From positions 16,926,001-16,990,000 of the forward strand of contig OZ024758.1 in the NCBI GenBank assembly GCA_964016885.1: DNA of 64,000 nt, given 5' to 3'. The notes beneath the pieces were generated by a model. It saw only the letters and a program-made list of their open reading frames with translations. It was not told the origin of the DNA and ran no database searches. Both the position numbers and the translations under genes were made by a program. Positions 6,942-36,990 of the stretch are shown piece by piece (positions within the stretch are counted from its first letter, which is position 1; every line of letters begins with the position of its first letter). This DNA comes from Eledone cirrhosa. Taxonomy: Eukaryota.

Positions 6942-7379
6942 TATAAATAAAATAACAGGAGGCTGGACTGGTGTAAATCCTTGAAAGGTTTATTATACTA
7001 TGATCATTTCAATGACCGGGTTCCATATGAATCCGGTGATATCAGGGATTCTAAATATAACAAATCAATATGTAAAAACCATGGGTCCGAAAAATCAGAG
7101 ACAGAGAGGACGACTGACCAACTAGCTGCTTTCACCTCGGCCAGTTGCCCAAGTAGCCATCACTTTGAGGGCGACTGGCCGAGGTGAAAGCAGCTAGTTG
7201 GTCAGTCGTCCTCTCTGTCTCTGATTTTTCGGACCCATGGTTTTTACATATTGATTTGTTATATTTCGAAACCCTGATGATATCACCGGATTCATATGGA
7301 ACCCGGTCTTGAAATGATCATAGTATAATAAACCTTTCAAGGATTTACACCAGTCCAGCCTCCTGTTATTTTATTTATA
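6942..7379. repeat. Long fold-back palindrome (about 210-bp arms, 18-nt loop) containing an HHR-like core
   Basis: 6942-7150 is the near-perfect reverse complement of 7169-7379; ctgatga at 7274 ... gaaatgatcata at 7311-7322. Confidence 0.9.
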
Positions 7380-7587
7380 ATTAACTCCATATTCGCACCA
7401 CCAACTACACAAACGAAGACGGGTGAACTGCACTACGTTGAGTTCTCTCCACAATATTACACCAAGATTGACCATATAAATATAGAAAGATTGACCATAT
7501 ATATATATATATAGAAAGAGAGAGAGAGAGAGAGAGAGAGAGAGAGAGAGAGAGAGAGAGAGAGAGAGAGAGAGAGAGAGAGAAAGA

Positions 7588-7920
7588 GGCACATGGCTTA
7601 GTGGTTAGAGCATTGGCCTTGCAATCAAAAGGTTGTGAGTTCAATTCTCAGACCGGGTGATGTGTTGTTTCCTTGAGCAAGACACTTTATTTCACATTGC
7701 TCCAGTTTACTCAGCTGTAGAAATGAGATGAGAGGACTGGGGTCCCTATCATTCCACTGCAAAGTGGTCGTGGAGGTGCCGCGGCAAAAAAGCACCCAGC
7801 ACTCACTGTAAATGAGGTTGGTGTTAGGAAGGGCATCCAGCTGTAGAAATCAAGCCAGAATCAGTTGCTGTCCCACCCTTGCAAGCAGGGAAAAAGCAGA
7901 CATAAAATGAAATGAATGAA
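7588..7920 (+). mobile_element. Full-length SINE family B (tRNA head + central domain + RTE-derived 3' tail)
   Basis: A/B boxes, ccttgagcaagacacttt domain, then gcacccagcactcactgtaaatgaggttggtgttaggaagggcatccagctgtag shared with the RTE 3' UTR. Confidence 0.8.
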
Positions 7921-8542
7921 TATATATATATATATATATATATATATATATATATATATATATATATATATATATATATACATACAGATATGTATATATA
8001 TATATATATATATATATATATATATATATATATATATACATACATACATACATATATATGTATGTATGTATATATATATATATATGTATATATATATATA
8101 TACATCATATATACATATATATATACATATACACATATATATATATGTATATATGTGTAGGTAACATACATATATATATATCACATATAGAGAGCGCTCA
8201 CAGGGTATATATATACAGAGAGATATATTTTCCTTTGAAAATGATGCTTCCTTTCAACATAACTGAACATTTTGCATGTATTACTTGTCAAACATTGAAA
8301 AATGCTTTTAAACAATAAAATATATAAACATTAGTTTAAACTTAGCAATGAGTAAAACGAATACTGTGAAAATGCTAACAAACTTTTTTCAGGATTTGTC
8401 ATGTTACCTCAGAGATTTTTTAAACCAATCATATATAATATTATATTATATTATATTGTATAAATTATATTATATTACAAATATTCTATCATATTATATA
8501 AATTATATTATATTATATTATATAATATATATTATATTATAT

Positions 8543-8920
8543 ATCATCATCATCATTTTACGTTGGTTTTTCCCTGCTTGCAAGGGTGGGATGGGTCCTA
8601 TTCAGCACAGCATCTCTCCATTCGTCACTGTCCTTCATCATCTCCTCCGTGTGATTCAGTGATCTGAGGTCATCTCTGCCCATGATTTTTGTGGTCTCCC
8701 TCTACTGGGTCTTCCTTCCACTAGGATTTCTTGGCACTTCTTTACCTAACGGTCATCCTCCATGCGCATCACATGTCCATACCAGCACAGTCTTCTCTCC
8801 CACACACTACAGCCTATAACGTCTTATACACAGTTTCTCTCTCAACTCGTCTATGCTTGGTTGTTCATGTACATTGACATTGAACATCCAACGGAACATG
8901 CTTGCTTCATTTCTCTCCAA
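8543..8920 (-). mobile_element. RTE LINE 3'-end remnant (second subfamily)
   Basis: ERNEASMFRWMFNVNV..ELREKLCIR..; (CAT)n tail on the + strand; related copies 10775-11035(-), 13190-13580(+), 43755-43925(+), 45505-45888(+). Confidence 0.8.
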
Positions 8921-10774
8921 CTTTACTTTGAGACAACAGATATATAGGTGAAACTTGTAAGGCAGTTTTAAACAAGAAATAATAATATACAAACTCTACT
9001 TCAGGTATTGAGTACTTTTTACCCTACTTTATAAATTTAAATGTTTATATAACTATGATTATGCATCATAAATAAATAAATAAACCTATACATATATATG
9101 AGGAAGATAGACTCACCTAACTCAACATGTCTCTAATGGGACAACCCGTCTAACCCATGCTAGTGTGGAAAATGGACGTTAAACTATAATGATGATGATG
9201 ATATATATGTTAAAATGTGTGTTTAAAATACCATAGTATTTAAAACACTCAAACATTAACTGATTGAAAACTAAATACTTACAATACAATATATATATAT
9301 ATATATATATACATATATATATATGCACATACATATATATACAAAGATATTCATATATATACATCTATATACATTTACATATATATATGCATACACATAT
9401 ATATATATTTACATATATATGATGATATACATTTATACATGTACTATCCGTATGCATGCATATGTTTTTATAAACACATACATAGATTATGTATGTGTTT
9501 GTGAATCCATGTGTGTGTATATAAAGATTAAATTTATCTCATCTGCAAACCTCAAGAGGCTGGAAATAAAATTTTAAACAACTAAGTACTAATAATTGAA
9601 AGAGATTTTTTTTTAATATATATATACCTTTTTACTCGATGTAAACTTTCAAATAAACATGTACTTGTTTCATTTTTTTCATTTTTTTCCTCAATTTTTC
9701 CATTTTTTCTCTTTCCTCACTAGCCTCTGTTTCTCTCTCTTCTGTGTGTCTCTCTCTCTCCATATCTTTCTCTCTCTGTCTGTCTCTCTCCCTCTTCCCC
9801 CCCTCTCTCTCCCTCTCTCTAGTTAACCATGAAAATAAACACGAAGCAAAATCCTAAGTATGAAGGGAAATATCTCGGGAAGAAGAAAAAAAGATGTATT
9901 TTGAAGTGTTAACAAGTTGATGTAAATGCTATTTTTTTTTCATTTTGATTTATATATTTTTAAATTCTTTACTTGTTGATTCTCTCAATTATGCTTTTCT
10001 GGATGAAAACTGTCAAAGTGAATTTTTATTATGTGAGAAATTAATAAATTTGTCATTGCTAAAGAAAGTTTGAATATGTGATTTTTCACTAAGAAATCTT
10101 GTTCCATCCAGCTGATAAACATAAAAGTTTATAGATAAACTTTCCTTCTTTATTTATATTATGTTATATGTTATGTTCTTTCTTCGTTTTCTGAGCAATT
10201 CCCTCTATGGTGTAGTCAATTTGATGATTTCATTTATCAGAGGAAAAATTGTCTCCATTCAACAACAACAAAAAAATAACAATAAAAGACAAAAAACCCA
10301 TAAAATAAATATGAAATAGAAAATATTAAAATATCATAAAGGAATTAATAAATTTATCAATTTGCAAAGAGAAAACAAAATCCAATTTTAATTTCCATCT
10401 TTTATAAACAATGTTACTAAAATAGAAATGTAGGAAAAATATAATTTCTACATTCATTTGTCTTTGCAGCCATATGTTTGATAATTCTTGAGAATTAATA
10501 TAAGACACTACTACTACTTCTACTACTACTAATAATAATGATAATAACAACATGAATTTTAGTATACATCTGTAAATTGGGATTTACTTTCTTAATATAA
10601 ACTCTTCAAATGTATGTTGAGTTCAATTGGCTATAAAATGAACCAAATTTCTAAAATAGTTTTGATTGCAAGTTGGAATGGCTCTTACAGTGCATCTCCC
10701 TCACCATCCTCTGGGGAAACGCCTCCTCTATTCTGTCTACCAGAGCCATGGGGCAGCCAACCAATGAGCCCCCA

Positions 10775-11035
10775 TTTGCTCAACGCCTGCGCCCATGTTT
10801 TTTGTGGTCTTCCTCTACTGCGTCTTCCTTCTACTGGGATTTTTTGGCACTTCTTTATCCAGCGGTCATCCTCTATGCGCATCACATACCCATACCAATG
10901 CAGTCTTCTCTCCTGCACACCACAACTTATCCCTCTTATACACAGTTTCTCACTCAACTCATCTATGCTTGGTCGTTCATGCACATTGACATTGCACATC
11001 CAACGGAGCATGCTTGCCTTTATTTCTCTCCAGCT
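10775..11035 (-). mobile_element. RTE LINE 3'-end remnant
   Basis: MLRWMCNVNVHERPSIDELSEKLCIRGISCGVQERRLHWYGYVMR...RGRPQKTW. Confidence 0.8.
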
Positions 11036-35065: not shown

Positions 35066-35731
35066 TTATATATATATATACATATCTCTATATATATACA
35101 TATATATATATATATATATATACATACATATACATATACATATATATATATACATATATATATATATACATATATATATATCTATACATATATATATAAC
35201 TATATATATATATATATATACATATACATATATATATATACATATATATATATGTATACATATATTTATATATACACATATATATATATATGTGTGTGTG
35301 TGTATATAAATATATATACATGTGTGTATGTATATAAATATATATACATGTGTGTGTATATAAATATATATACATGTGTGTGTATATAAATATATATACA
35401 TGTGTGTGTGTATATAAATATATATATGTATATAAATATGTATATATGTGTATATATACGTGTATATATATATATATATATATATATATATATGTGTATA
35501 TATATATATATATATATGTATATATATATATATATATATACATGTGTGTATATATATATATATATATGTGTGTATATATATATATATATATATATATATA
35601 TATATATATATATATGTGTATATATATATATATATATATATATATATATATGTGTATATATATATATATATATATATGTATATATATATATATATATGTA
35701 TATATATATATATATATATATATATATATAT

Positions 35732-36106
35732 ATATATTAGTAAAAAGAAAAGAAAATGCTGACAAATTTTTCCCAGTGAAAAATACTTTAATTAGGAATA
35801 AGTATAAATTAGTTATAAGTATTGGTTAGTATTCAGTTTTAGTTTTAAGTTTTTACCGGGTGCGCATTTCTAATGGTTTTCAAAAATAATTTTAAGATAG
35901 AGCGCCCGTGATGTTTGAGAGCAAACATCATGGGCGTTCTATCTCAAAATTATTTTTGAAAAGCATTAGAAATGCGCACCCGGTAAAAACTTAAAACTAA
36001 AACTGAATACTAACCATTACAATTACTAATTCTCACTTATTCCTAATTAAACTATTTTTCACTTGGAAAAATTTGTCAGCATTTTCTTTTCTTTTTACTA
36101 ATATAT
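35732..36106. repeat. Fold-back palindrome (about 186-bp arms, 4-nt spacer)
   Basis: Centre tgatgtttg-agag-caaacatca at 35918-35921. Confidence 0.9.
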
Positions 36107-36216
36107 CACAACTCGTGTGTTACACCTCTATTCTTTTTAATATATATATATATGTCCCATGGCTCTGATACCAACAACACTATACACACAGAGCTGGCAT
36201 ATCTAAGAACTGACTA

Positions 36217-36272
36217 ACTGCCTGATGAGGTCATAGCCATTCAATGGCTATCATTGAAATATATATAGCAGT
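36217..36272 (+). ncRNA. Minimal type-I hammerhead ribozyme
   Basis: Stem I actgc/gcagt; CUGAUGA 36222-36228; stem II atagccat/atggctat; GAAA-U-AUAU-A-UA; predicted cut after 36267; aataaa follows; lies in an insert of about 165 bp between (TA)n tracts. Confidence 0.8.
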
Positions 36273-36796
36273 AAATAAAGGATTATGAGTTCATGCAATT
36301 GACTTATGTTTCGTCACTATATATATATATATATATATATATATATATATATATATATATAAATATATGTATATATATATAGAGATATGTACATATGTAT
36401 ATGTATATATATATGTATATGTATATATATATGTATATATATATATGTATATGTATGTACATATGTATATGTATATATATGTATATGTATATATATATGT
36501 ATATATATATGTATATGTATATATATAGAGATATGTATGTATATATATATATATATATATATATGTATATATATAGAGATATGTATATATATAGAGATAT
36601 ATATATATATATATATATATATGTATGTACATATGTATATGTATATATATATATGTATTTATGTATATACATATATTTATATATATATACATACATAGAT
36701 GTATATATATATATACATACATAGATATATATATATATGTATACATATATGTATACATATATTTATATATATATATATATATATATATATATATAA

Positions 36797-36990
36797 CGGA
36801 GGAAATGTGGTAAGGAACCAGGTGGACCATAACGCACCAAAGTACTCAATACTTGAGGTAGTAGAGTGGGTAATAGGAACCAGTAAGACCCCGACAGCTG
36901 AGCTCAAGCCGTTTCGACGGCTAATTCTGAGTCCAGAATTAGCCGTCGAAACGGCTTGAGCTCAGTTGTCGGGGTCTCATTGGTTCCTAT
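36797..36990. repeat. (TA)n-embedded element with palindrome 36873-36990 carrying HHR 3' halves
   Basis: Spacer agtc 36930-36933; gaaacggct-tgagctc-agttgtc stem III with a GUC triplet. Confidence 0.8.

Follow-up and report, generated by a model that had tools for sequence, protein, structure and literature searches.

What kind of element leaves long fold-back palindromes, mostly unrelated in sequence, next to (TA)n microsatellites? We address this question in a stretch of 64,000 nucleotides (nt) of Eledone cirrhosa (assembly GCA_964016885.1, contig OZ024758.1, positions 16,926,001 to 16,990,000 of the forward strand; hereafter the window), in which seven palindromes (P1 to P7) and two inserts (P8 and I9) are named. 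A sequence-only reading had taken them as termini of several families of Penelope-like elements (PLEs) or retrozymes that gain an inverted arm during reverse transcription. The anatomy of the elements and the variable turn-around points of related copies fit this proposal, but none of the stubs is linked to an open reading frame (ORF). Our analysis suggests that the stubs are probably short, 5'-truncated 3' ends (a pseudo-long terminal repeat, pLTR, plus a tail) of several PLE families, with the mirror arm made by fold-back of the complementary DNA (cDNA). We hold a PLE-type origin of the set to be very probable, and less so for P2; as to the arm itself, we lean towards fold-back rather than two-sided priming, and not strongly.

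Palindromes in a TA niche

All nine elements are present, the palindromes at about the positions first proposed and the inserts at 27552 (the inverted arm of P8) and about 36150 (I9), although P4 spans 17075-17317 and not 17097-17312 (Table 1). Their arms are about 55-240 bp long and 93-100% identical, and substitutions or indels (0.4-7%) separate the arms in seven of the eight arm pairs. A census of fold-backs over the whole window gave 16 rows, and none above 85% identity lies outside the named elements. The remaining five rows pair opposed copies of other repeats at 75-85% identity, none of them TA-adjacent; by our reading these may be copies similar to short interspersed nuclear elements (SINEs).

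The proposed contact with (TA)n is far above chance. We found (TA)4 within 15 nt of 17 of the 20 ends of 10 elements, many of these ends having been set by eye at the TA run, against a background of 7.3%. When only the ends fixed by symmetry are counted, 6 of 9 lie within 15 nt of (TA)4 (P=1e-5 against the same background), and a seventh, in P3, is parted from TA solely by a SINE with a 7-bp target duplication, which sits between the outer end of the short arm and (TA)n. Two of 18 SINE ends are TA-adjacent for comparison.

A one-sided unpaired tail, which had been claimed for most of the palindromes, is found in six of the seven. The tails of P6 and P5 measure 33 and 36 nt and those of P1, P3, P4 and P7 measure 117, 87, 66 and 76 nt, the published length being 30-40 bp. 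The short arm stops at an internal alternating-TA patch, with a TA overlap of 4, 4, 1, 5, 6 and 3 nt in six elements, compared with a null mean sum of 9.6 at other positions in the same arms (P=1e-4). Such a rule for short-arm ends was not found in the open-access full text that our search covered. The tandem dimer of P8 terminates at an internal TA patch that merges into (TA)n. The head-to-head orientation of the arms is fixed by a hammerhead ribozyme (HHR) in P1, P3, P7 and P8, and we infer it from the tail in P4, P5 and P6.

The description of the elements as unrelated in sequence is mostly right, but P7 has a sibling of 89% identity, and the 11-mer GTATTGAGTAC, a small stem-loop, is common to P4, P7, the P7 sibling and a decayed stretch at ~8940-9090 (positions 17055, 36842, 16015 and 9005; 4 seen versus 0.04 expected). 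Each copy of the 11-mer lies 55-65 nt downstream of a GAAAC, and it is possible that it represents a conserved protein-binding signal of related families. A 13-mer shared by P1 and P2 (E 0.009) was put down to AT-rich chance.

P2 is the least PLE-like element of the set, and its inner 34 bp hold 8 of the 11 mismatches. Adenosine-to-inosine editing was rejected as the source of its strand-biased mismatches (7 versus 0), since CpG decay accounts for three of the seven and the others are consistent with a hairpin that already existed. The outer arms of P4 score 66/1/0, short direct duplications lie between its hairpins, and it has a possible HHR 3' half that fails the strict test.

Table 1. Coordinates of the palindromes, inserts and related features in the window; arm scores are given as matches/mismatches/gap columns
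Feature	Position	Strand	Description
P1, short (inverted) arm	6942-7150	-	205/3/4 versus 7169-7379; HHR core minus 3 nt
P1, spacer, main arm and tail	7151-7496	+	18-nt small-hairpin spacer, arm 7169-7379, 117-nt tail into (TA)n
P2, symmetric palindrome	15406-15601 versus 15656-15851		185/196 matched; 54-nt loop; without HHR or evident tail
P7 sibling, non-palindromic	15968-16125	-	89% identical to P7; 3' end within 2 nt; 3' half HHR
P3, main arm and tail	16300-16572	-	87-nt tail 16300-16386 into (TA)n; HHR copy with non-palindromic loop
P3, short arm	16575-16759	+	Complete type I HHR 16650-16719; arms 16387-16572 versus 16575-16759, 179/6/1
P4, double hairpin	17014-17317		Hairpins 17075-17317, centres 17128/9 and 17263/4; tail 17014 to about 17079
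P8, inverted arm	27552-27739	-	188/188 copy of 27952-28139; 3-nt overlap with unit start
P8, tandem dimer	27737-28370	+	Two identical non-coding 310-bp units, a complete minimal HHR in each (27891, 28201)
P5, palindrome	28402-28913		Arms 28438-28673 versus 28677-28913 (234/2/1); left 36-nt tail; no valid HHR half
P6, palindrome	35732-36139		Arms 35732-35917 versus 35922-36106 (173/12/1); right 33-nt tail; degenerate HHR 3' half
I9, single-arm insert between TA runs	36154-36317	+	Complete type I HHR 36217-36272
P7, palindrome	36797-36990		Arms 36873-36929 versus 36934-36990 (54/3/0); left 76-nt tail; HHR 3' half with long stem III
Decayed PLE-type GIY-YIG endonuclease remnant	3800-4130	+	Frameshift and stops; unlinked to any palindrome

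Hammerhead motifs and further copies of P5 and P8

We compared a descriptor scan of the window for HHRs with 200 local shuffles. Four complete type I HHRs were found (16658, 27891, 28201 and 36222, all on the plus strand), while the shuffles gave a mean of 0.005 and a maximum of 1. The bare HHR 3' half (1 bp plus a palindromic tetraloop) was seen 8 times versus 2.8 +/- 1.7 in the shuffles, where the maximum is also 8, and by itself is weak evidence. The motif carriers and their loops are P1 (GAUC), P3 (GCGC), I9 (AUAU) and P8 (CGCG). The P1 core has CUGAUGA at 7274, GAAA-U-GAUC-A-UA at 7311-7322 and a stem II. The long-stem-III 3' halves of P7 and its sibling are found at 0.6% and 2.4% in the shuffles, and P6 has a degenerate 3' half with a GCGC loop, in which CC replaces UH in both arms. 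Overall, four of the nine named elements carry the HHR motif strictly and five loosely, so the statement that most of them do cannot be kept. A rule that the palindrome centres lie in HHR stem II was also dropped: it is plausible in P4 and P7 only, and the centres of P1 and P3 are 80-105 nt upstream of the core.

In P1, P3, P8 and I9 the arms extend beyond the HHR cleavage position, by 110-185 nt on its upstream side. Since they run past this position, the templates were likely uncleaved and the HHRs likely passengers in these insertions, which agrees with the finding in PMC11167929 that HHR cleavage is unneeded for insertion in vitro.

We aligned four public sequencing runs to 27548-28914 (1367 bases), which covers P8 and P5 only. 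Two of the runs are of one sample and one consists of restriction-site-associated DNA (RAD) reads of another study, all from one organism (A), and the fourth is from a second organism (B). Both elements are multi-copy in the two organisms and three studies, with 1275, 1044 and 3040 contigs and 9976 reads, and CUGAUGA is found at the P8 core in most of the family depth. At least 16 joints, placed elsewhere than the one in the window, pass from antisense P8 sequence into sense P8 sequence, 14 of them in contigs and some being one junction repeated. Plain copies fail to explain these joints, as their agreement with the natural upstream sequence is 2-8 of 22 letters. In P5, a contig of organism B turns back in exact mirror symmetry at a point 171 nt away from the centre found in the window. 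Thus a variable 5' truncation across a multi-copy family holds for P5 and P8, the families compared. This variable turn-around in other copies suggests that the mirror arm is likely produced anew at each insertion.

Loose ends running into TA were observed at the internal TA patch of P8 in 6 and 8 contigs and at the short-arm end of P5 (28437) in 14. Beyond the P8 patch, two runs each have a contig that ends after a further 31-33 nt, about the published tail length. Six listed pile-ups of read ends in the RAD run, all at AATT, together with its loose ends and two joints, were set aside as library products and not biology. A contig of single-copy depth in both runs of the one sample breaks exactly at the predicted P8 cleavage position 27921 and picks up again 45 nt further on, with 5 additional letters in between; this break (n=1) may be the trace of a template switch where an RNA had been cleaved. 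Searches with exact patterns gave no match for P8 and P7 in metagenome contigs or for P7 in viral contigs.

It had been expected that such elements are missed by standard annotation. This is true in a narrow sense, as no hammerhead family is among 150 of the 163 Rfam matches (E<=1); the rows listed are transfer RNA (tRNA)-like SINE heads and sub-threshold microRNA-type matches to TA runs or hairpins, and about 4 kb of the window is unflagged as hammerheads in them. However, a curated Octopus vulgaris library is reported to hold 31 recently active PLE families (PMC13282606), which may include those of the window. If transcription reads through the stubs, they would likely yield long hairpin RNA.

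Origin of the stubs and of their mirror arms

The layout of the stubs is already in print for PLEs, so the idea of an unrecognised kind of system is not borne out, and as a class the stubs are known PLE debris. Craig et al. 2021 (PMC8557442) describe an adjacent inverted 5'-truncated copy, a one-sided tail of 30-40 bp and a (TA)n bias, and this insertion bias is described for Neptune and Naiad. Palindromes at head-to-head junctions are ascribed to self-priming by Arkhipova et al. 2013 (PMC3846280). Compared with the insertion unit of endonuclease-containing PLEs, the stubs have the same head-to-head inverted 5'-truncated copy, junction palindrome and (TA)n bias and, in six of the seven palindromes, a one-sided tail; they differ in consisting of terminal arms of 55-240 bp only, with no ORF, in the 66-117 nt of four tails, in short arms that end on TA patches, and in target duplications that are unreadable in (TA)n. 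We conclude that the stubs behave like PLE insertions, while their formal membership lacks an ORF link.

Cervera and de la Pena 2014 (PMC4209133) describe minimal metazoan PLE HHRs of type I with a palindromic loop 3, HHR pairs on opposite strands that are separated by 100-700 bp, and single motifs, which they regard as probable truncated PLEs. The HHRs predicted here from the sequence are similarly of type I, with helix III slight or none and a palindromic loop, whereas P3 has a long stem II (about 14 bp). According to PMC8557442, Octopus is among the Naiad hosts and Naiads are without HHRs; such elements could fit P2 or P5. P8, as a non-coding tandem whose ~300-bp units each contain a type I HHR, resembles the non-LTR retrozymes of Cervera and de la Pena 2020 (PMC7229834), but its HHR is of the minimal PLE type and it carries a PLE-style inverted arm. 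This HHR has a CGCG loop and no helix III pair, and folds at -4.2 kcal/mol versus a cut-off of -5 in a preprint that derives non-LTR retrozymes from PLE pLTRs (Li et al. 2026, 10.64898/2026.07.22.740005). The families of the window were not found in open-access full text; Repbase, Dfam or supplementary libraries may hold them.

We also looked for PLE proteins. In an exhaustive search, the decayed endonuclease remnant at 3800-4130 matches two proteins with a YVDD-type reverse transcriptase (RT) and a GIY-YIG domain at the C terminus (E 1e-4 and 5e-4, both weak), and a word-based homolog search with it gave no match. With a profile of 12 such proteins the remnant is found at E=3e-6, the only segment of the window under E=1. 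No HHR is found downstream of it. The remnant shows that this genome has PLEs, but does not mark them as the makers of these stubs.

How PLEs build their inverted repeats and tails is given as undefined in PMC8557442, and the TA overlap at the short-arm ends and the variable centres bear on both. We suggest the following course, its first step being taken from the PLE literature. The GIY-YIG endonuclease would nick (TA)n and the RT would start at a fixed site near the 3' end of the element, giving the tail-bearing arm; the 3' ends of P7 and its sibling agree within 2 nt. The cDNA synthesis would halt early and the 3' end of the cDNA would prime itself, presumably at a loop of 2-4 nt (P3 to P7), at an existing hairpin (P1 and P2), or at a 3-nt match 212 nt back (P8). 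The internal TA patch at the short-arm end would then anneal to the (TA)n flank, setting the tail length, and host repair would fix the hairpin as a duplex palindrome. We tentatively speculate that the tail is not a fixed signature of 30-40 bp, and that its length is given by how far back from the RT start site the nearest internal TA patch lies; equally tentative is the part of this idea by which annealing at that patch makes the second junction to the (TA)n target. If it were true, thousands of stubs, each recording its turn-around, would make a genome-scale footprint deciding between fold-back and two-sided priming.

Several observations weigh against our interpretation. The PLE profile finds nothing under E=0.1 in the arms, and none of the stubs connects to an ORF for an RT or a GIY-YIG domain. 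P2, P4, P5 and P6 fail the strict HHR test of the nine named elements, and stem I of P1 is displaced by about 9 nt. Four of the six tails (66-117 nt) are longer than the published 30-40 bp, and P2 has symmetric ends and no tail. The 4-nt spacer of P7, read against the sibling, runs in the short-arm direction, which simple fold-back accounts for only given a 4-nt loss. The placing of near-symmetric turns at natural hairpins falls short of significance (3 of 3 sites, P 0.06-0.15). In the public runs, the sides of the joints are short (20-28 nt) and flagged unreliable, the library type is unrecorded for three runs, and no piece spans the window's own centres among 24 listed of about 5400.

The alternative that survives best, as a possible though clearly less probable course, is two-sided priming, in which each of the two target strands is nicked and serves as primer for a cDNA of its own, one starting at the fixed tail site and the other at the annealed TA patch, the two cDNAs finally being joined head to head at short self-complementary ends. 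The anole PLE protein is reported to nick and extend both strands, with two adjacent RNA start sites bounding the tail and a predicted dimer (PMC11167929), but the same source states that initiation in vitro required no homology to the target. The short-arm ends recur among copies (the 14 contigs at 28437) and lie on TA patches, while the short arm is always nested in the main arm and is identical at 188 of 188 positions in P8. The spacers divide likewise: that of P7 suits two-sided priming, whereas the loops of 2-4 nt and the spacers of P1 and P8, which run in the main-arm direction, fit the snap-back of fold-back.

The stubs might instead be TA-targeting MITEs (miniature inverted-repeat transposable elements) or else foldback DNA transposons bearing long terminal inverted repeats, moving as fixed palindromes. 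Microsatellite-targeting MITEs are known, and the pineapple Ac-mMITEs are described as inverted-repeat elements clustered in (TA)n (PMC8449440); these are Mutator-derived with fixed termini, unlike the asymmetric elements of the window with their varying centres and HHRs. Instead of the fixed symmetric termini and fixed internal structure of MITEs, we found asymmetric ends in six of the seven palindromes and centres that vary in the P5 and P8 families. With the one-sided tails, the HHR cores and the non-palindromic P7 sibling also against it, this explanation is very unlikely for the set. For P2 alone, which has symmetric ends, a diverged inner part, no tail and no HHR, it is a serious possibility, if still a doubtful one.

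Slightly less likely again is that single-arm inserts were made palindromic later by host break repair near TA cruciforms, independently of any enzyme of the element. Long (TA)n runs are fragile, and the window also contains a retroelement of RTE type whose last 347 bp are repeated in inverted form (98%) on the far side of a TA run, but the mirror arms of the stubs stop inside the element at a TA patch and never reach the flanking DNA, and SINEs beside TA have no such mirrors. Assembly or amplification chimeras, for which the complete identity of the P8 arm with both units and the lack of a listed contig across the window's centres might speak, are the least credible explanation, because seven of the eight arm pairs are diverged (0.4-7%), a SINE with its own target duplication lies at the P3 arm end, and head-to-head joints of the same families are found in runs of two organisms.

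Other repeats of the window

The window is AT-rich, with ~4 kb of (TA)n, SINEs, two fragments of RTE-type long interspersed nuclear elements (LINEs) as well as large satellites. The first LINE (17322-19950, minus strand, 5'-truncated at ~19570) sits inserted within the TA run flanking P4. Its last 347 bp recur inverted, 98% identical, at 19605-19950 past a (TA)16 run, so that the LINE and its copy are head to head with the same 3' end outward on both sides, which is unusual for a LINE. The second RTE-type ORF (33193-35066) is open for 623 amino acids, encodes an RT plus a PHD-like finger, and is 75% identical to the first; its truncated 5' end likewise adjoins (TA)n. The best matches of the RTE protein search are 56-68% identical.

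Tandem arrays of 47-48 bp occupy 47566-62065, 29916-30526, 44137-44536 and 24000-24832, the largest having 302 copies. The 48-bp arrays are similar among themselves and to a unit at 17486-17570, within the 3' region of the RTE element (about 75%), which suggests that these satellites may have been born from a retroelement end. A 39-bp satellite at 37331-39171 has 47 copies and several open frames.

One SINE-like family clusters at 735-2180, 5036-6215 and 21914-22800, where tandem and opposed copies give rise to inverted repeats of 75-85%. Copies of a SINE-like, tRNA-headed kind are found at 7589-7866, 40791-41123 and about 45930-46070; ARAGORN predicts no tRNA gene at any of them, and the Rfam tRNA match at 40796 scores 38.7 bits.

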